Part shown: positions 381 through 27,796 of the stretch, piece after piece
Numbering within the stretch: the stretch's first letter is position 1
Layout: each line of letters begins with the position of its first letter
Source: Megasphaera sp. AM44-1BH
Lineage (GTDB): Bacteria; Bacillota; Negativicutes; Veillonellales; Megasphaeraceae
NCBI RefSeq assembly: GCF_003467125.1
Contig: NZ_QSFA01000011.1
Coordinates: 17,980 to 57,979, forward strand
Reading direction: 5' to 3'
Length of the DNA: 40,000 nt
Notes under the pieces: generated by a model
Database searches by the model: none
Told to the model about the DNA's origin: nothing
The model's input: only the letters and a program-made list of their open reading frames with translations
Program-made: the position numbers and the translations under genes

Positions 381-456
381 AGGCGCGTAGCTCAATCGGT
401 AGAGTGGTGGTCTCCAAAACCATAGGTTGAAGGTTTGAATCCTTTCGCGCCTGCCA
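381..456 (+). tRNA. tRNA-Trp (anticodon CCA), phage-encoded, with encoded CCA end
   Basis: Cloverleaf by hand: acceptor AGGCGCG/CGCGCCT, D arm GCTC/GAGT, anticodon arm GTGGT-CTCCAAA-ACCAT, T arm GAAGG-TTTGAAT-CCTTT, discriminator G plus CCA. Confidence 0.9.
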
Positions 457-4488: not shown

Positions 4489-5121
4489 ATGACGATTGAA
4501 GAATTAATCCAGAAATTGGGGATTGCTGATGATAAAAGAGAAGAAGCTTCCAAAACTCTTCATGATTATCTGGATGGCAATTATGTAACAAAATCTCGTT
4601 TCAATGAGGTCAACGAGGAAAAGAAGACCCTGAAGACAACAGTTGCAGAACGAGACAAGCAACTGGAAACCCTGAAGAATAGCAAAGGCGATACAGAAGC
4701 CTTGAAAGCGCAAATCAAACAGCTTCAGACGGAAAATAATCAGGCAAAAGAAAAATATGAAGACCAGATGAAGAATCTGAAACTGACTACGGCCATTCAA
4801 CTGGCTATAGGTGATAGTGCGCAGGATGTCGGGATTGTTTCCGGATTATTTGACAGGGATAAGCTCATCCTTGGTGAAGATGGAAAAGTCACTGGCCTTG
4901 ATGAACAGCTTAAGGCACTCAAGGAAAGTAAACCATTTTTGTTTAAAGCAGCACCTGGTAATCCGCCGAAATACAGCCCTAATGGTGGCGGCGGAAATAA
5001 TTTGAAGAATCCCTTTGCTAAAGAGACATTCAATATGACAGAACAGGGCAAGCTGTTGCGTGAAAATCCAGAACAGGCCAAAGCCTTTGCAGCGGCCGTT
5101 GGAGTCACACTCAATGTATAG
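4489..5121 (+). CDS. Scaffolding protein (Phage_GP20-like)
   Basis: The N-terminus MTIEELIQKLGI..., the ..NYVTKSRFNEVNEEKKTLK.. motif and the long coiled coil are typical GP20 scaffold features. It precedes the capsid gene. Confidence 0.8.
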   Translation: MTIEELIQKLGIADDKREEASKTLHDYLDGNYVTKSRFNEVNEEKKTLKTTVAERDKQLETLKNSKGDTEALKAQIKQLQTENNQAKEKYEDQMKNLKLTTAIQLAIGDSAQDVGIVSGLFDRDKLILGEDGKVTGLDEQLKALKESKPFLFKAAPGNPPKYSPNGGGGNNLKNPFAKETFNMTEQGKLLRENPEQAKAFAAAVGVTLNV

Positions 5122-5134
5122 GAGGTAATGAATC

Positions 5135-6103
5135 ATGGCAGGAACAACTTTGACAGACGTCATTGTACCGGAACTCTTTAATCCGTATGTCATCCAGCGG
5201 ACAATGGAAAAATCGGCATTTTTCAGTAGCGGTATCATTACACGGAATGCAGCTTTCGATGCATTAGCCAGTGAAGCGGCCCGTACACATAATATGCCTT
5301 TCTTTGAAGATCTTTCTGGTGATGCCCAGAATATCGTAGAAGGAAAGTCAATCGAATTCCAGAAAATCACGTCTAATAAAGACGTATCGACAACTATCAT
5401 GCGTCAGCAGAAATGGAGTGCTACCTCTCTTTCGGCGGCACTGGCAGGTAGTGACCCGATGCGTGCCATCGGAGACCTGGTTGCTGATTACTGGGCCCGT
5501 CAGTATCAGAAAGAACTGATTAATATTTTGACTGGCGTCTTTGGAGCCGATACGATGGCGGACCATGTGCTGGATATTTCTAAAAAGACAGGCAATGCCG
5601 CTAATATCAGTGCGTCTGCCGTCATTGATACTCTGCAGCTTCTGGGTGACGCTCAGGATCAGCTGACAGCGGTTGTTATGCATTCCGCAACCAAAGCATA
5701 CCTTAAAAAACAGAATCTCATTACGACGGAACGGGATAGCACTTCCGTGGAATTCGATACGTATCAGGGACGCCGCGTCATTGTAGACGATGGATGCCCG
5801 GCCGCTGATGGTGTTTATACGACGTACTTCTTCGGATCGGGAGCAGTAGCTTATGGTGAAGGGAACCCGGTAGGTTTCGTGCAGACAGAAACGAAACGCG
5901 ACCCGGACCTTGGCGCCGGTATCAACATGCTTTACAACCGTCGCTGCTTCATCATGCACCCCCGTGGAATCGCATGGCAGAATGCTGTACGTGCCAACGT
6001 AGAATCTCCATCCAGAGAAGAACTGGCAACGGCAACGAACTGGAAACGCGTGTATGAACCGAAAGCCATCCGTATCGTAGCATTGAAACATAAAGTAGGC
6101 TGA
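5135..6103 (+). CDS. Major capsid protein
   Basis: 322 aa directly after the scaffold gene with a strong RBS (TAGGAGGT). The composition is typical of HK97-fold coat proteins. The family was not pinned down. Confidence 0.75.
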   Translation: MAGTTLTDVIVPELFNPYVIQRTMEKSAFFSSGIITRNAAFDALASEAARTHNMPFFEDLSGDAQNIVEGKSIEFQKITSNKDVSTTIMRQQKWSATSLSAALAGSDPMRAIGDLVADYWARQYQKELINILTGVFGADTMADHVLDISKKTGNAANISASAVIDTLQLLGDAQDQLTAVVMHSATKAYLKKQNLITTERDSTSVEFDTYQGRRVIVDDGCPAADGVYTTYFFGSGAVAYGEGNPVGFVQTETKRDPDLGAGINMLYNRRCFIMHPRGIAWQNAVRANVESPSREELATATNWKRVYEPKAIRIVALKHKVG

Positions 6104-6112
6104 TAAGGTCAG

Positions 6113-7549
6113 GTGATGGATGTGGACAGCGAAGAGTATTGGGCACAGAGAGCCATAGAGCGGGAAAAAGAATGGCACAAGAAATGCCAGGAAACCATTG
6201 AAAAGGAACTGGCCCGGTACTATCTTGCATCGCTGGGCCATATCCAGACCGATATAGCGGCACTGTATGGCCGGTTTGCCAAAGATAATGCACTGTCAGT
6301 CGAAGAAGCGCGCAGGCTGATTACGGGAAGTGAATACCGGCAGTGGCGTATGACGATTGAGGAATATATCAGGCAGATAAAGGAAAACGGGGACAAAGGT
6401 CTTGAACGGGAACTGAATGTCCTGGCCATGCGCAGCCGTATCAGCCGGCTGGATAAGCTGTACAGTGAAACCTTGATGGAACTGGATGCGTTAGGACATA
6501 AGGTTTCTGAGACTATGACGGATTTCCTCACAGATGCATACAAAGACAATTATTATCATGGGCTGTTTGATATTGGGAAGGAAATCGGATTGCCGGCCTC
6601 CTTTGCTAAAGTCAACCGTGATGATCTGACGCAGGTGCTCCGGAATCGATGGAGCGGGATGAATTACAGCCAGCGAATCTGGAAAAATCAGCGGCTGCTG
6701 GTACGAACACTAAAGTCTGAGATGATGACAGCCGTTCATCGAGGGGAAAGCATAGATGCTATCTCTAAGAGGGTATCCCAGCGGGTGGATGTCGGAATCA
6801 GTAATGCACGACGTCTGGTCCGGACAGAGCTGAATTACGTTGAAAATCAGAGTGCCATGGACGGTATCAAAGAAGCAGGGATGAAGTATTACCGCTTTTC
6901 TGCGACACTGGACCGCCGGACGTCAGCGACCTGCCGGGGACACGATGGCCATGTTTATCCCATTGGCGAATATCAGCCAGGCAGTACGGCCCCACCACTT
7001 CACCCGAACTGCCGTTCCACAATCGCCGGCAGCCTGTACGGGCCGGATAAAAAGAAGACCGGGACACGCATTGCCAGGAATGACAAGGGCAAGACGTATT
7101 ATGTGCCAGCTGACATGACGTATGAAGAATGGTATAATAAACATATCGAATCAACTATTATACCAACTGGCAATGCAAACTGGAAAACTAATGAACAAGG
7201 ATATGTTATTGTCACGAAGCAAATTCCCAAGATTATTAAACATTACCGGACTGCCACACATGCAGAACCTAATTCTGTAGTTATGCATTATGGAAAACCC
7301 GGACCACATGAGCAAATGGACTATGATTTTTATGATGAGAATGGGTATTTGGCAATGCAGATTCATTGTGGAAATCATCTTATGCCAAGAAAACATAAAT
7401 TCGGTGAGTTTGGTGAACATGCAGCACATTGGGAATGGACGCAAAAAGAGGGGAAGTGGAAAGGGCACCCATTACCAAATACTGAATTAACAGAGAAGGA
7501 AAGGAGGCTGGTACATGATGGTATTGAGTTTAAACGAACTCAGAGATGA
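6113..7549 (+). CDS. Head morphogenesis / minor capsid protein (MuF, SPP1 gp7 family) with an extra unassigned 133-aa C-terminal domain
   Basis: MuF hallmarks are RRLVRTELNYVENQS and PPLHPNCRST. aa 346-478 (nt 7148-7546) are His/Trp-rich, low-GC and unrecognised. Confidence 0.85.
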   Translation: MMDVDSEEYWAQRAIEREKEWHKKCQETIEKELARYYLASLGHIQTDIAALYGRFAKDNALSVEEARRLITGSEYRQWRMTIEEYIRQIKENGDKGLERELNVLAMRSRISRLDKLYSETLMELDALGHKVSETMTDFLTDAYKDNYYHGLFDIGKEIGLPASFAKVNRDDLTQVLRNRWSGMNYSQRIWKNQRLLVRTLKSEMMTAVHRGESIDAISKRVSQRVDVGISNARRLVRTELNYVENQSAMDGIKEAGMKYYRFSATLDRRTSATCRGHDGHVYPIGEYQPGSTAPPLHPNCRSTIAGSLYGPDKKKTGTRIARNDKGKTYYVPADMTYEEWYNKHIESTIIPTGNANWKTNEQGYVIVTKQIPKIIKHYRTATHAEPNSVVMHYGKPGPHEQMDYDFYDENGYLAMQIHCGNHLMPRKHKFGEFGEHAAHWEWTQKEGKWKGHPLPNTELTEKERRLVHDGIEFKRTQR

Positions 7550-7766
7550 AATGGAAAATTGGACCGCTTATGAAAATTCTTTTGTTTATAAGGGCGTTGA
7601 ATATGGACTACTCCATAATGCAAAAGATGGCAGTTATTATTTTGGACTGTGCAATACTCTGGATGATCATGGCCAGACTTTTCCCGATTTTGACTCTGCA
7701 GTAAATGCTTTGCTTGTAGATGGCCATTCTATTGCGGAGTTAATGCCGCAACTCAATTGGACTTAA
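7515..7766 (+). CDS. Hypothetical 83-aa protein, candidate immunity/partner of the MuF C-terminal domain
   Basis: AAGGAGG at 7501-7507 lies 7 nt before the ATG. The ORF overlaps the MuF ORF by 35 nt, has the same low GC, and is followed by a terminator. Confidence 0.6.
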   Translation: MMVLSLNELRDEMENWTAYENSFVYKGVEYGLLHNAKDGSYYFGLCNTLDDHGQTFPDFDSAVNALLVDGHSIAELMPQLNWT

Positions 7767-14368: not shown

Positions 14369-15108
14369 TGAGGATGGGCACGTTAGGCAATACGATTCAG
14401 GTCCTTTCGGCCATCTTCTCCAGTGGCGGAGTAAGCGGAAGACGGCAGATCATCATTGAAGGTCCTACAGGGCGCCTGGTCATACCGGTAACGCCGGCAA
14501 AGTATACTGTCGGAGATGGCCAAAAGAATAAAGTCGTCGATATTACACAGGTTGGGGAAGCTACAGTGTTTGGGATGCCCAAAGCCCGGACACTGTCATT
14601 TTCCTGCTTCTTCCCGTCTACTGTGCATGATTATCCGTTCGTCGTAGGTGATTACACAGACCCGACTGCTTGTGTTGAGAAGCTGACAGAATGGAAAGCG
14701 TCCCGGAAGCCGGTACGTGTCATCATTACAGATTCTCCAGTAAACATGCAGATGGCCATCATGGAGTTCTCCTACTGGGAGCAGGACGGCAGCCGGGATA
14801 TCTACTATACGCTCAATTTCATGGAGTACAAAGAACTCAATGTCCCGGCGGCCAATAATGATAAGCCGATTGATGACGCGACAGGGCTTAAAGTGCGGCC
14901 GGTTGACCTGGATGCCAAAATCAAGGAAGAGCAGGCCAATGTCTCTAAAGGGAAAGCGTTGTTCCAAAAAGGATGCGACGTAATGGATATCGCTAAGAAG
15001 GCCTACGGGGATTATACCCATTGGCGTCGCGTTATCAAGAGTAATAACCTGAAGAGTCTGGTCATCAATAACGCCGGGCAAATCCGGAAGTGGGTGATTA
15101 AGAATTGA
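14368..15108 (+). CDS. LysM-domain tail protein (XkdP-like)
   Basis: C-terminal LysM-like segment (..DVMDIAKKAYGDYTHWRRVIKSNNL..). Position after the tape measure gene, as in PBSX. Confidence 0.65.
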   Translation: MRMGTLGNTIQVLSAIFSSGGVSGRRQIIIEGPTGRLVIPVTPAKYTVGDGQKNKVVDITQVGEATVFGMPKARTLSFSCFFPSTVHDYPFVVGDYTDPTACVEKLTEWKASRKPVRVIITDSPVNMQMAIMEFSYWEQDGSRDIYYTLNFMEYKELNVPAANNDKPIDDATGLKVRPVDLDAKIKEEQANVSKGKALFQKGCDVMDIAKKAYGDYTHWRRVIKSNNLKSLVINNAGQIRKWVIKN

Positions 15109-16595
15109 TCATCAAACATAAGCAGGTTGTCACTGAAACAACAAAAGACGCAAGCGGACGGGAGACAACGACTCAGAAAGACGTGCTGAATGACATATCA
15201 CGTCTGACAGTTGGTAAGATTACATGGGAAGGCTCGCGATTGCAGGTGGCCCGGAAACTGACATTTTCTTATGTCCAGGACGCCCGGGACCCGAACCTTC
15301 CGAACTATGTCATCAACTGTGGTGAGACGGTCTATGGTTATGATGAAGACGGGAACCTACAGTTCCAGGGCAATGTGTACAGTGTCGAAAAAAATGTACA
15401 GCAGTCTACCGTCACAGTCATGGCCTACGATAATCTGTTCATACTTTGCCGGTCTAAAACGACGCGGAAATTCACGAATATGCTGGCTGAGGACATTGCA
15501 AAAGCGGTCTGTAGTGAACTGGGTATCAAAGTCGGGAAACTGGCTGAAACAGGCAAGAAAGTCTCGTTTATTGCCCAGGAGAAAACAGGTTATCAGATCA
15601 TCATGATTGCCTATACAGATGCAGCCAATCAAATCAACACCCAGAAGGAAAACAAGGATGATCCGGACGTTCTCTTCCATCCGGTCATGCGCGGCGATGA
15701 ACTGGATGTCATCAAAAAAGGCGAACTCATCGAAGGGCTGGATGCCAATCAATACGTAAATATTGAGAACAGCCAGTATAAAGAATCCATCGAAAGCATG
15801 GTCAACAGCGTCATGATCACCGACCAGCAGGGCAACGTCACGGGCTACCAGACAAAAGATGAATGGATCCAGAAGTATTCCATGGTCCAGGACGTCTATA
15901 AGACGAATCCGAACGACAATGCCCAGGCAGAAATCAACAAGCTGTTCAAAGGGCCGGAACGGTCCGGGGTATTAGAAATGATTGGGGATTATGCCGCAAA
16001 GTCTTCCTACTCCATCCAGATTAGGGATATCCTGACGGAATTGTGCGGGAAATTCTGGATTAAATCTGATACGCATACATTTGAAAACGGTATCCATGAA
16101 ATGCAATTGGAAATCGAGTTCGAAAACATTATGAACAAAGAAGAAAAGCCGAAAGAGATACAGACGAAGACAGGCCGCACATCGTCTGCGATTGGCAGTG
16201 CGAATTTGGCAGCGTCTGAAGGTGTACAGGCCGGTTTTGCCGCCTGGGAAGGAGCTACCATGCCAGACGGGCCGAATGGCTGTGTCGAAGCGGCTACACG
16301 TATTGGCAGCTATTACAGTCCTTTCCTGAAGCAGGAATGTGACAATGGTGTTGCCTCGGTCCCGACCTTGATGTCTGATGCCGGCGACGCCGTCATTCCT
16401 TTCGATGAATCGAACCTGGAAGTCGGGGACTGTGTTGTGTTCGATGGTGATGCGCACGTGGTTGTCTATGCAGGGGACGGCACGTATGTAGGAAATAACT
16501 CCAGTGGGAATGGAGGTGCTGGAGCTGTTGGTACTGGCGGTATCTATAATATTGGCATGACCCCGACGTCTATTATCAAGACGAGCCGGATGTAA
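15105..16595 (+). CDS. XkdQ/YqbQ-like baseplate hub protein with a C-terminal Cys/His hydrolase-like domain
   Basis: N-terminus ITWEGSRLQVARKLTFSY...VTVMAYDNLFIL is XkdQ-like. The C-terminus GCVEAATR...GDCVVFDGDAHVVVYAGDG resembles NlpC/P60 or CHAP. TTG start overlaps the upstream stop. Confidence 0.65.
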   Translation: MIIKHKQVVTETTKDASGRETTTQKDVLNDISRLTVGKITWEGSRLQVARKLTFSYVQDARDPNLPNYVINCGETVYGYDEDGNLQFQGNVYSVEKNVQQSTVTVMAYDNLFILCRSKTTRKFTNMLAEDIAKAVCSELGIKVGKLAETGKKVSFIAQEKTGYQIIMIAYTDAANQINTQKENKDDPDVLFHPVMRGDELDVIKKGELIEGLDANQYVNIENSQYKESIESMVNSVMITDQQGNVTGYQTKDEWIQKYSMVQDVYKTNPNDNAQAEINKLFKGPERSGVLEMIGDYAAKSSYSIQIRDILTELCGKFWIKSDTHTFENGIHEMQLEIEFENIMNKEEKPKEIQTKTGRTSSAIGSANLAASEGVQAGFAAWEGATMPDGPNGCVEAATRIGSYYSPFLKQECDNGVASVPTLMSDAGDAVIPFDESNLEVGDCVVFDGDAHVVVYAGDGTYVGNNSSGNGGAGAVGTGGIYNIGMTPTSIIKTSRM

Positions 16596-16607
16596 GGAGA
16601 TGATATT

Positions 16608-17006
16608 ATGCCGGAACATATTCCATCTGCATCTCAATCAGCATCAGCCATTGTAGATATCATGCATACAGTAGCCCGGGGCGAACTGCCAAGAGGCGCC
16701 CAGGTCGGCATCGTCGAAGCCCCGCCTCCTGATATCGTTGTCCGGATGAATAATATACCATTGACGAAGAAGGACCTGTATATTTCAAGGTATCTGATGC
16801 CGGATTATACCCGTCATATGGTCGGGCAGACCAGTAACCGGGCTGGTGGTTCCGGAGACGCAGCGTATGAAAGTCATAACCATCCCATCGATAACGATGA
16901 GACGTGGACGGATACACTGAAACCGGGGACGCTGGTCCTCCTGATACCAATTTACGGCCAGAATGAGCAATTATACTGGCTGGCAGACAGTGGGGTGAAG
17001 TTATGA
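16608..17006 (+). CDS. XkdR-like baseplate protein (DUF2577-like)
   Basis: Synteny (after the XkdQ-like gene), size 132 aa, strong RBS TAAGGAG. Confidence 0.55.
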   Translation: MPEHIPSASQSASAIVDIMHTVARGELPRGAQVGIVEAPPPDIVVRMNNIPLTKKDLYISRYLMPDYTRHMVGQTSNRAGGSGDAAYESHNHPIDNDETWTDTLKPGTLVLLIPIYGQNEQLYWLADSGVKL

Positions 17007-21343: not shown

Positions 21344-22567
21344 ATGGCAACAGATATTGTAAATTTTCCGCGGCGCGAAGACTACACGCGCATCGCCGCG
21401 GCCATTGAATCACAAAACGATATTTTTAGGAATCATTTTAAAACAGCTGGAGAATCGGCAGTAAGGTCATGGGAGGGATTCCGCAACCTTTGCCGTGCCG
21501 GCGGCATCCGCACATACTACAGTGTAGGCGACCAGCTCCAATGCAAAAAAGGAGACACGACATTAACATGGGATATCGTGCATATCGGCGATGTCGAAGA
21601 GACGGGCGGCAACTACGTCATCTTGCAGACGCACGACTGCTTGCCAATGGACACAATGGAGTTTGACTCGCGTGAGGCGATTTTCTGCACGAAGACAGAA
21701 CTTCCGGCAGGCACGTACCATTTTACGACGTCCACGTCCGGCATTACGGACCCGAATTGGACAGACTCTAGCAAATCTGGCTGGACAAAGAGCTGGCAGT
21801 TTACGACGACAAAAGCTGTGCCAGCTGGCGGCCAAATCAATTTTGCAAAAGGGATGGACTGGAATACGAGCCTTGCTCCGCTCGGCATCGCGACATACTC
21901 GACGCCGGCGGACACGACAGCGCTTGAGACGGTCACGCTTACAGAGGGCACCAATGGCACAGACCTTGCGACACTTGGCACGGTCAATCATGCGCAGCGC
22001 GTCTGCTATGGCTACAACCGCTGGAGCCAGTCTGGACTCAGACAATGGCTCAACAGCAAAGCAGGCGCGGGTGCATGGTGGAGCCCGCGCAATGATTTTG
22101 ACCGACCTGAGCATTATGCGACATGGGCGGGCTTTATGAATGACCTCGATGCCGATTTCCTCGCCGTCGTCGCAAAGTCGAACCTCATCACGGACATCAA
22201 TAAAATCAGTGACGCCGGCGGTCACGAAACGACACAGGACTACTTCTTCTTGCCGGCGATGGTCAATCTCAATGGTGGCAATAACTTCTACTCTAATCCC
22301 GGCTCGGCCGTGCAGGACATCGAAGATACGGTCGTCTGGGATTACTACACGAAATTCCGCCGCGATGGCAAAACAGGAACAAATGCCGAACAAGACGATA
22401 ACCGCCGCAAGTACAAACAGGGGACCTCAACGGAATGGTCCTGGTGGGAACGGTCGCCGCACTGCGATCTTGCGTACTGCGTGCGCGTCACCGATGGCGG
22501 TCGCACCTGGTGGTTCAACAGCGCGTACAGCTGGAACGGCGTCGCCCCGGCTTGCCGCATCGAATAA
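21344..22567 (+). CDS. Receptor-binding protein (DUF6273/C-type-lectin-fold-like), probable DGR target
   Basis: Motifs YGYNRWSQSGLRQWLNS, FDRP and the C-terminus WSWWERSPHCDLAYCVRVTDGGRTWWFNSAYSWNGVAPACRIE. avd and an RT remnant follow. Confidence 0.7.
   Translation: MATDIVNFPRREDYTRIAAAIESQNDIFRNHFKTAGESAVRSWEGFRNLCRAGGIRTYYSVGDQLQCKKGDTTLTWDIVHIGDVEETGGNYVILQTHDCLPMDTMEFDSREAIFCTKTELPAGTYHFTTSTSGITDPNWTDSSKSGWTKSWQFTTTKAVPAGGQINFAKGMDWNTSLAPLGIATYSTPADTTALETVTLTEGTNGTDLATLGTVNHAQRVCYGYNRWSQSGLRQWLNSKAGAGAWWSPRNDFDRPEHYATWAGFMNDLDADFLAVVAKSNLITDINKISDAGGHETTQDYFFLPAMVNLNGGNNFYSNPGSAVQDIEDTVVWDYYTKFRRDGKTGTNAEQDDNRRKYKQGTSTEWSWWERSPHCDLAYCVRVTDGGRTWWFNSAYSWNGVAPACRIE
22436..22564 (+). other. 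Putative DGR variable region (VR). The 5' boundary is approximate
   Basis: Adenine content is 16/120 in 22441-22560 against 42/120 in 22321-22440 (hand count). The 3' end is GC-rich (GGCGTCGCCCCGGC). Confidence 0.5.
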
Positions 22568-22574
22568 TCAATAA

Positions 22575-22598
22575 ATCCGCCGCCCCTCGGCGGCGGAT
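22575..22598 (+). promoter_or_regulatory. GC-rich hairpin downstream of the VR (DGR target-recognition-type stem-loop)
   Basis: ATCCGCCGCC-CCTC-GGCGGCGGAT is a perfect 10-bp stem with a 4-nt loop, starting 8 nt after the stop. No T-tract follows. Confidence 0.55.
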
Positions 22599-22616: not shown

Positions 22617-23150
22617 ATGGCTATACCGAAATCAAAGCGCACGACCACGCCGCTCAGCGTGCTTGTCGAAGCCGATACACTCGCATGCTACACGATACTA
22701 ATTTGCACCGACGAAAGACGCTTTCCAAAGCGCTACCGCTGGTGTCTGACACAGCAGATTATTGATGTAGCCGTGCAAGCAAAGATGCATATCGCAAAAG
22801 CGAACTCAGTCTACGTCAATGACCGCGAGAGCGCGACACTCCGGCGCACGTATCAGCAGAAAGCCGTTGCTGACATTGCGGCACTCAGCGCCGCGATGGA
22901 TACCGCTTTCAAGCTTTTCAGTGGCTTGCGTCACATCGACACGACGAGCAAGCCGAAGAAACGCATCAATATTGCGACGTGGACGGCGCAGCTCGATAAA
23001 GTCAAATCACTGCTCCTCGCGTGGAAGAAATCAGATACCGATTACAACTGCACCCGAAGAAGTGCCGTGTCGTGCCTGTGTCACGCGGCTTCAAATGGCT
23101 CGGTTTCCGGATGCGCGTCAAGCCGTCTGGCAAGATACTCGTCACGCTGA
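22617..23150 (+). CDS. avd: Avd-like accessory variability determinant (four-helix bundle) with an aberrant 37-aa read-through tail
   Basis: RFPKRYRWCLTQQIIDVAVQAKMHIAKANS...RRTYQQKAVADIAALSAAMDTAFKLF...LLLAWKKSD. After ~nt 23037 the frame continues into RT-derived DNA out of frame. Confidence 0.55.
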   Translation: MAIPKSKRTTTPLSVLVEADTLACYTILICTDERRFPKRYRWCLTQQIIDVAVQAKMHIAKANSVYVNDRESATLRRTYQQKAVADIAALSAAMDTAFKLFSGLRHIDTTSKPKKRINIATWTAQLDKVKSLLLAWKKSDTDYNCTRRSAVSCLCHAASNGSVSGCASSRLARYSSR

Positions 23151-23347
23151 ATAAGGACAAAATCTATCACGAGCGCAGAAAGCTCAAGAAGATGGTCAAG
23201 CTCATCAAAGCTGGCAAGCTGCCACGCGATACAGCCGAGGTAAGCCTGCGATGTTGGGCCGCTCATGCCGAGCATGGCAACAATTATAACGTCATCAAAA
23301 AGATGTATGAATATTATAGAAATCTATGGAGGGATGAAGATGTTTAA
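23021..23347 (+). pseudogene. Reverse transcriptase remnant (C-terminal third of a DGR-type RT)
   Basis: IRYRLQLHPKKCRVVPVSRGFKWLGFRM...SLRCWAAHAEHGNNYNVIKKM. An in-frame TAA at 22997-22999 closes the frame upstream. No fingers/palm motifs and no YxDD. Confidence 0.6.
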
Positions 23348-23519
23348 AGCAATCACAATGGAAGAGCGCTTACAGAAGGCGGAAACAACAAACCGAGCCC
23401 TGCGCTCTCAGCTCGATCAGAGCGTAGCACAAACGGCGTATGTCGCAATGATGAGCGGCGTAGACCTGCCGACAACAGAAACGACAAATATGGCGGAAGG
23501 AGGCGAAAACGATGAGTAA
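23334..23519 (+). CDS. Hypothetical small protein (XkdW position)
   Basis: MKMFKAITMEERLQKAETTNRALRSQLDQ.... TGGAGGG lies upstream. I chose the internal start of track ORF 23265-23519. Confidence 0.45.
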   Translation: MKMFKAITMEERLQKAETTNRALRSQLDQSVAQTAYVAMMSGVDLPTTETTNMAEGGENDE

Positions 23520-25337: not shown

Positions 25338-25341
25338 CTGT

Positions 25342-25415
25342 GGTGCGCCTAGAAGGATTCGAACCTTCGCACCCGGTTCCGGAGACCGGTGCTCTATCCC
25401 CTGAGCTATAGGCGC
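25342..25415 (-). tRNA. tRNA-Arg(CCG)-like gene with a non-canonical 6-nt anticodon loop
   Basis: Acceptor GCGCCTA/TAGGCGC, D arm GCTC/GAGC, T arm GAAGG-TTCGAAT-CCTTC and an encoded CCA are all perfect. The anticodon arm is CCGGT-CTCCGA-ACCGG. Confidence 0.7.
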
Positions 25416-26710: not shown

Positions 26711-27796
26711 ATGACGAAATGTGTCGCCGTGGCTATGAGCGGCGGTGTCGATAGTTCTGTAACGGCAGCGCTCCTGAAGGAACAGGGCTACGATGTCATT
26801 GGCATTACGCTGCGTTTATGGGAAGAAGATCCATCCTGCCCGGCAGTCGAAAATGTTCATTCCTGCTGTTCTCTGTCTGCCGTTGATGATGCCAAGGCAG
26901 TGGCTTCTGTCATTGGCATTCCCCATTATACCCTGGATTATAGAGAATTATTCCATAACGATGTCATCGATTATTTTGTCCAGTCCTATGTAAAAGGACA
27001 GACCCCCAATCCATGCATCGCCTGCAATAAATGTATTAAATTCGGCCTGCTCTGGCAGCAGGCGCAGCAATTTGGCGCCCAATACCTGGCAACGGGCCAT
27101 TATGCCCGCATTGTGTATAATGAAGCGCGTGGCATTTATGAACTGCTGCGGGGAACGGACCGGCGCAAAGATCAGTCATACGTCCTGTATCAGTTGACAC
27201 AGGATTTGCTGCCACATATTGTATTTCCCATGGCAGAACTGGAAAAAGTACAGACGCGGGAACTGGCAAAACAATTCGGGCTTCCTGTTTTCAATAAGCC
27301 GGAAAGCCAGGATATATGCTTTATTCCCGATAATGATTATAAAGGTTTTTTAAAGAAGCGGGTCCCGCAATGCTTTAAACCGGGGAATTTCGTTGATGTA
27401 CACGGCCATGTTGTCGGACGTCATCAGGGCATTCCCTGTTATACTATCGGCCAGCGCCGTGGCCTGCATCTCGGCGGTCCCGGAGGTCCGTATTATGTCG
27501 TCGCACTCGATGTGAAACGCAACCAGGTCATCGTCGGTTCAGAAACGGATTTGTTCCGTACAGAAGTCCGGGCCCGGGACCTCTCGTGGGTGGAAGGCCG
27601 GCCGCAGGGGACGTTTGCAGCATTGGGAAAGATACGTTATGCTGCCAAAGAATCTCCTTGTACGGTGTATCCCGGCAAGGATACGATGCGCGTCGTATTT
27701 GACACGCCGCAGCGGGCTGTGACGGCCGGACAGGCACTGGTATTGTATGACCGGGAAACGGGAGAACGGGTTCTCGGCGGTGGTGTCATTATTTAA
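26711..27796 (+). CDS. mnmA: tRNA 2-thiouridine(34) synthase MnmA
   Basis: PP-loop [24 protein letters not shown], and the length of 361 aa. Confidence 0.9.

Follow-up and report, generated by a model that had tools for sequence, protein, structure and literature searches.

A decayed DGR in a Megasphaera prophage: fragments of avd and reverse transcriptase joined by a deletion beside an orphaned VR

Downstream of the tail-fibre genes of a prophage in Megasphaera sp. AM44-1BH, most of an avd gene is joined out of frame to the end of a reverse transcriptase (RT) gene, next to a target gene that still carries its VR, whereas the template repeat (TR) is missing. This arrangement raises the question of whether the locus is a DGR that was killed by a deletion, a product of faulty assembly, or a local remnant whose VR is still being diversified from elsewhere in the same genome. 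The answer that we regard as very probable is that of a dead DGR in a myovirus-like Megasphaera prophage, inactivated by one deletion of about 1.0 kb and left with a fixed VR. Here, the window is the whole stretch of DNA that was analysed, 40,000 nucleotides in length, and positions refer to it unless a relative is named. The features on which the argument is built are collected in Table 1.

Table 1. Features of the window, the intact cassette of L003, and deletion alleles of the cassette in the window and in related loci (allele end points mapped on L027)
Feature	Position	Strand	Basis or remark
tRNA-Trp	381-456		directly upstream of the small terminase gene (571-1101)
DGR target gene, 407 aa, intact ORF, C-terminal DUF6273	21344..22567	+	Pfam, E 5.9e-14
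VR, orphaned	22452..22553	+	82-88% match to the TRs of relatives
GC-rich hairpin, 10-bp stem, loop CCTC	22575..22598	+	DNA folding
avd-derived segment, codons 1-142 of a 148-151-codon accessory gene	22617..23041	+	PHROG, synteny, fold model
Fused ORF, 177 aa: Avd residues 1-142 and 35 residues from out-of-frame RT DNA	22617..23150	+	
Deletion junction	23041..23042	+	blastn end points, alignments to intact relatives
RT-derived segment, aa 248-348 of 348 and stop codon	23042..23347	+	PHROG, nucleotide identity to relatives
Small ORF, 59 aa, downstream of the RT remnant	23340..23519	+	tblastn with orf62 of L003
tRNA-Arg (CCG)	25341-25415	minus	
mnmA, host gene	26711-27796		identical to WP_118022789.1 of Megasphaera sp. 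AM44-1BH
Intact cassette of L003	target 4733-5959, avd 6001-6453, TR about 6454-6560, RT (348 aa) 6697-7743 (in L003)		
Window allele	avd aa 142 to RT aa 248		also L032, L033, L034
Allele of L001	avd aa 25 to RT aa 216		
Allele of L035 = L053 = L054	avd aa 81 to RT aa 229		three samples
Allele of L036	avd aa 28 to RT about aa 311-317		
Allele of L052	avd aa 88 to RT aa 147		
Allele of L055	avd aa 50 to RT aa 173		in frame; 11-nt overlap
Allele of L056	avd aa 109 to RT aa 309		in frame
Allele of P0063	avd aa 70 to RT about aa 291		protein level only
Allele of L002	RT aa 58 to RT aa 186		GCTCGG repeat; plus frameshift; TR kept
Allele of L040	VR to TR crossover		avd deleted; target gene ends in TR sequence

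The gene order of the window is that of a phage. Genes for the small and large terminase, portal, scaffold, major head and minor head/morphogenesis proteins are followed by those for the tail sheath, tape measure, baseplate and tail fibres, then by the target gene and the DGR remnant and, after these, by an XkdX/XhlA/amidase lysis block that ends at the tRNA-Arg gene. Three independent contigs (L032, L033 and L034) all stop at 25370, within this tRNA gene, which suggests that it is the attachment site of the prophage. A second copy (attL) of the 3' 30-mer of the tRNA-Arg gene was not found in the window, so that the left end of the prophage would lie outside it. On the host side, other strains whose mnmA gene is identical to that of the window (L045-L049) have the same host genes, but the region upstream of these contains different phage-like genes (Phage_Mu_F, HTH_59).

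What the locus looked like before its decay can be read from its relatives. Ten distinct close relatives (L025-L031, L038, L039 and L041), all of them IMG/VR or metagenome contigs found by searches with Avd and the RT tail, carry an intact cassette in the order target gene, avd, TR and RT (348 aa), with 85-89% nucleotide identity between the window and the closest of them, L025-L027. Acidaminococcus fermentans WCA-389-WT-5B (L003) carries a more distant intact cassette. Nothing on DGRs in this genus turned up in a literature search, and blastn against the INPHARED phage collection gave no match. Two peculiarities of the relatives may be recorded here. A second fragment that resembles the VR, to which it is about 80-84% identical, is located some 1.3 kb upstream of the target gene and outside any long ORF in L027 (1930-2050), and likewise in L025, L026, L002 and L036; it has no counterpart in the window, and has the appearance of a relic left by the 3' end of a target gene. 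In L031 (4360-4497), the VR of an otherwise intact cassette carries a 21-nt tandem duplication with respect to its own TR.

The breakpoint and the size of the deletion follow directly from alignment to these relatives. In the seven that were aligned across the junction (L025-L031), homology to the window runs unbroken up to 23041 and starts again at 23042, and between these two bases they carry 1014-1023 bp that are absent from the window. In the coordinates of L027, the left end falls at avd codon 142 and the right end at RT codon 248, and the missing stretch comprises the last six to nine avd codons, the TR, the spacer and RT residues 1-247. The YMDD motif occupies residues 218-221 of the L027 RT, inside the missing part, and the Pfam RVT_1 domain covers residues 114-271, so that with the breakpoint at RT codon 248 not only the TR and the spacer but also the fingers and the catalytic palm of the enzyme have been lost. 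A previous interpretation of the locus made without database searches (the sequence-only reading) had predicted a deletion of roughly 1 kb from the end of avd to the RT thumb, with loss of the TR and the active site, and had expected the breakpoints near 23030-23045; the alignments bear out both expectations, whereas the end of the avd part, which had been set at about 23037, has to be moved to the junction itself. A candidate microhomology at the window junction amounts to at most three bases (CCG, followed by a mismatch) and varies with the relative chosen, and no claim is made for it.

The left-hand part of the junction is 94% identical to the avd of L027, and residues 4-141 of the fused ORF match the PHROG family phrog_3206, annotated as 'Avd protein of DGR' (E 2.1e-11). 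Pfam and NCBIfam gave no match for either this 177-aa ORF or the 108-aa RT-like ORF discussed below, so that the identification of both rests on PHROGs, synteny with the intact relatives and the fold model. By direct sequence tests the Avd assignment is weak: searches against PDB sequences with phmmer and hmmsearch found nothing, and hhalign comparisons of two Avd alignments with Bbp7 of BPP-1 gave a probability below 1%. In addition to the PHROG match, the assignment is supported by the position of the gene, by its homologues and by its predicted fold. Orthologues lie between the target gene and the RT in L003, L025-L031, L038, L039 and L041, and the TR directly follows the 3' end of avd in the eight cassettes aligned (L002, L003, L025 and L027-L031). 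Among 44 Avd homologues, 11 match the Pfam families bAvd (best E 1.7e-7) or 23S_rRNA_IVP (PF22296, PF05635), and one has been named 'four helix bundle protein' by NCBI. The AF2 model built from the 44-sequence alignment (pLDDT 84) shows long helices at residues 12-31, 38-64, 70-100 and 119-139, and in the PDB it comes closest to 2gsc, to 2rld and to chains B, C and E of 8ub7, the latter being the non-RT, Avd chains of that entry (query-normalised TM 0.48-0.67, E 0.01-0.35). The description of the 22617 ORF as Avd-like in the sequence-only reading agrees with the PHROG match, the four-helix fold and the position between target gene and RT.

Since the modelled helices end at residue 139, before codon 142, the four-helix bundle of the window Avd is predicted to be complete, with only its short C-terminal tail replaced. 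The replacement arises because the avd and RT parts are in different frames, so that the Avd frame reads 35 codons of RT DNA before it stops at 23150, which gives rise to a Cys-, Ser- and Arg-rich tail. The novel out-of-frame tail and its end had been correctly described before, but its length had been given as 37 residues. A single-sequence AF2 model of the whole fusion reached a pLDDT of only 49.7, with values below 35 in the tail, and was dropped from the fold search.

The right-hand part is the end of an RT. The 108-aa ORF at 23021-23347, which has a GTG start and lies in a frame other than that of avd, matches phrog_1423 'Reverse transcriptase' (E 7.5e-19) and can be aligned with residues 250-323 of Brt from BPP-1, a protein of 328 aa (31% identity, E 7e-9), in agreement with its earlier assignment to the region that follows the YxDD motif. 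RT homology starts at 23042, and the residues EEIRYR of this ORF are avd DNA read in another frame. What is left of the RT are thus its last 101 codons, encoding the end of the palm and the thumb, in a frame different from that of avd, with 84-86% nucleotide identity to the same RT part in the closest intact relatives (L025-L027 and L029). Upstream, the frame is closed by a TAA at 22997-22999, as had been noted, and no Shine-Dalgarno sequence precedes either of the candidate starts of the remnant, GTG 23021 and ATG 23111. The fingers and palm motifs, which had been reported as absent, are indeed so: tblastn finds no RT core in the 40 kb window. As for the kind of enzyme that was lost, the best solved relative of the full-length L027 RT is 8ub7_A (E 9e-24 over residues 9-339), described in its entry as the reverse transcriptase of a DGR ribonucleoprotein, with a score that far exceeds those of group II intron, Cas-linked and retron RTs. 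The last RT codons overlap the RBS and the start codon of the small ORF downstream of the remnant, an ORF that is kept beside the RT in all relatives.

The target gene, placed 3' of the tail-fibre genes and 5' of the lysis genes, encodes a protein with 76-79% amino acid identity to those of the intact cassettes, and its VR keeps the signature of a DGR. Compared with the TR of L027, all nine substitutions of the window VR fall at TR adenines, which make up 24 of the 102 TR positions, and the non-adenine positions are the same in both. Because the VR differs from this TR at adenines alone, the locus was once an active DGR with an L027-like template, the signature showing past and not present activity. 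In the intact relatives, the own VR and the own TR differ at 10-19 positions, nearly all of them adenines. The window VR additionally carries one 3-nt gap with respect to the L027 TR, which removes an AAC codon. Since homing would restore this codon, it would have been lost at the last homing or later. The gap lies at 22486-22491 in the alignment to L027:5021-5125, and leaves the VR one codon shorter than the TRs and most of the VRs of the relatives.

Some 20 nt downstream of the VR, whose 3' end is conserved with the relatives, the hairpin listed in Table 1 has a folding energy of -14.1 kcal/mol (z -3.25, with no shuffled sequence as stable), and its stem is also present in L002. It resembles the target-recognition hairpin described for BPP-1 (PMC3240598), and may have played the same role. 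Neither a TR or second VR copy nor another RT, the latter sought with tblastn, was found within the 40 kb window, which extends to the whole of it the previous statement that the VR stands without a second copy.

The VR is identical in the window and in L032, L033 and L034. That the VR is frozen, as had been claimed for the case that no other DGR serves it in trans, is supported by this identity but not proven by it, since the four carriers differ by 0-1 SNP outside one recombinant patch and assemblies so nearly identical overall have little power to test it. The patch itself becomes visible in the comparison with L033, where 80 of the 81 differences fall within 14580-16844 and the remaining one at 22431, outside the VR. 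This 2.3 kb segment holds post-tape-measure and baseplate-region genes, and the other 8.5 kb compared contain that single difference; it looks like the product of recombination between related phages.

From these elements we infer a history of the locus that includes the mechanism of the deletion, the loss of activity and the neutrality of the remnants. The ancestor would have had a target gene with a 3' VR, followed by the hairpin, avd, the TR, the spacer and the RT. A single deletion of about 1.0 kb, by illegitimate recombination with little or no microhomology at the junction, would then have joined avd codon 142 to RT codon 248, at the cost of the TR, of the region for the spacer RNA and of every catalytic motif of the RT. 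As neither a template RNA nor a polymerase could come from the locus any more, mutagenic retrohoming would have stopped, and the VR of the tail fibre would have been fixed at the variant of that moment, also with one codon lost. The avd::tail ORF and the RT remnant would be by-products for which no function is expected. For annotation, this means that the 177-aa and 108-aa ORFs are better labelled as remnants, and that the tip of the tail fibre is probably no longer variable.

Whether the junction exists at all has to be asked, given that VR and TR repeats may mislead short-read assemblers and that a collapse or chimera could have produced it from a genome with the full cassette. However, the junction is located inside unique avd and RT sequence and not in the repeats. 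The identical 177-aa fused ORF is on record in five contigs, and three contigs that carry it come from independent runs (ERR12816264, DRR354946 and SRR8898523) and are 99.25-100% identical to the window over about 5-12.8 kb. The presence of the same ORF and junction in contigs of three different runs excludes an assembly artefact, to which we therefore concede a negligible chance. Contrary to this, diversification in trans accepts the local loss of the DGR core and supposes that another DGR of the same genome, with a matching TR and IMH*, still serves the VR. DGRs with several targets or with remote ones are known, Treponema denticola (PMC4891356) being one example, and a second DGR with a compatible TR could use this VR, whose 3' end and downstream hairpin are intact. 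Nevertheless, the VR is the same in four independent assemblies, it is one codon short of every orthologous TR even though homing would have restored that codon, and the window holds neither an RT nor a TR, all of which makes such a supply in trans very improbable.

The reading as a DGR killed by a deletion leaves the question of whether the loss was neutral, and this has to be judged in the light of related phages. The search for intact relatives also yielded at least nine further distinct deletion alleles in the same cassette, namely seven avd-RT fusions, one RT-internal deletion and one VR×TR crossover. Several pairs of these alleles are not nested and are therefore independent deletion events: avd residues 26-142 are kept in the window and lost in L001, whereas RT residues 216-247 are kept in L001 and lost in the window. 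The crossover allele, located at L040:1943-2077, has removed avd and the 3' end of the VR while the RT is intact, and TR sequence now encodes the Asn-rich end of its target protein (…WWNNNAYNWNGVAPDYMSQIK*).

Repeated deletion of the cassette in one phage family would be accounted for if the loss of the DGR core were adaptive, either by locking a receptor-binding variant or by shedding a costly RT and Avd from the lysogen. At least ten distinct alleles with different end points occur in close relatives, the window allele and that of L035, L053 and L054 were each found in several samples, and every one of the deletions would abolish activity. On the contrary, the frozen VR peptides differ among the alleles, with no sign of convergence on one variant, and the end points are scattered in the way expected if dispensable DNA flanked by two needed genes is deleted at random. 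Furthermore, the count of alleles is inflated by ascertainment, which favours odd-length fusion ORFs because these are conspicuous in protein searches, whereas just one of the 11 informative loci was decayed in the sample for which the RT tail served as anchor. Adaptive loss is for these reasons possible but unlikely, and it seems quite doubtful that the DGR core constitutes a hotspot of recurrent loss favoured by selection, with fitness gained from a fixed receptor-binding variant or from the removal of a mutagenic RT; the pattern of recurrent loss is to be taken as a lead and not as a result. If a hotspot of selected loss were true, this family would amount to a natural experiment in what targeted hypermutation costs. 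At least ten deletions in a single 1.7 kb cassette of closely related gut phages could serve to measure the natural rate of DGR loss, and the selection acting on it. To our knowledge, published surveys of DGRs count intact systems and seldom address their rate of loss or the selection on it, and independent deletions mapped to the base, many of them within a single lineage of phages, are less often documented.

The DGR of the window, understood as one inactivated by a single deletion, represents a known system in decayed form, and its decay is of an ordinary kind. With its intact sisters (L025-L031, L038, L039, L041 and L003) it shares the target gene, avd, the RT tail and the lysis genes; unlike the window, these have kept the TR and the 348-aa RT, and the differences between their own VR and TR are almost exclusively at adenines. 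The intact relatives, in turn, have the same order as the DGR of BPP-1 (mtd-avd-TR-brt, with its layout taken from the annotation of the record), that is, a target with a 3' VR, hairpin, avd, TR, spacer and RT. The likeness to BPP-1 extends to the adenine differences between VR and TR, to the alignment of the RT remnant with Brt, to the best match of the L027 RT with 8ub7_A and to the resemblance between the Avd model and the Avd chains of 8ub7. Contrary to BPP-1, the window lacks the TR, the spacer and RT residues 1-247, its avd and its RT remnant are joined in different frames, its Avd has no detectable sequence similarity to Bbp7, and its target is a DUF6273 protein instead of Mtd.

Loss of a DGR has been suggested to occur in culture (PMC3575424), and in isolates of Treponema denticola the RT and TR of a DGR have been lost while former target genes were kept (PMC4891356). 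The window resembles these isolates in that the machinery is lost and a former target with a VR-like region is retained. It differs from them in its location, which is a prophage and not a chromosomal locus, and in the fragments of avd and RT that it keeps at both flanks of the deletion; since both flanks survive in this form, the deletion can be mapped to the base.
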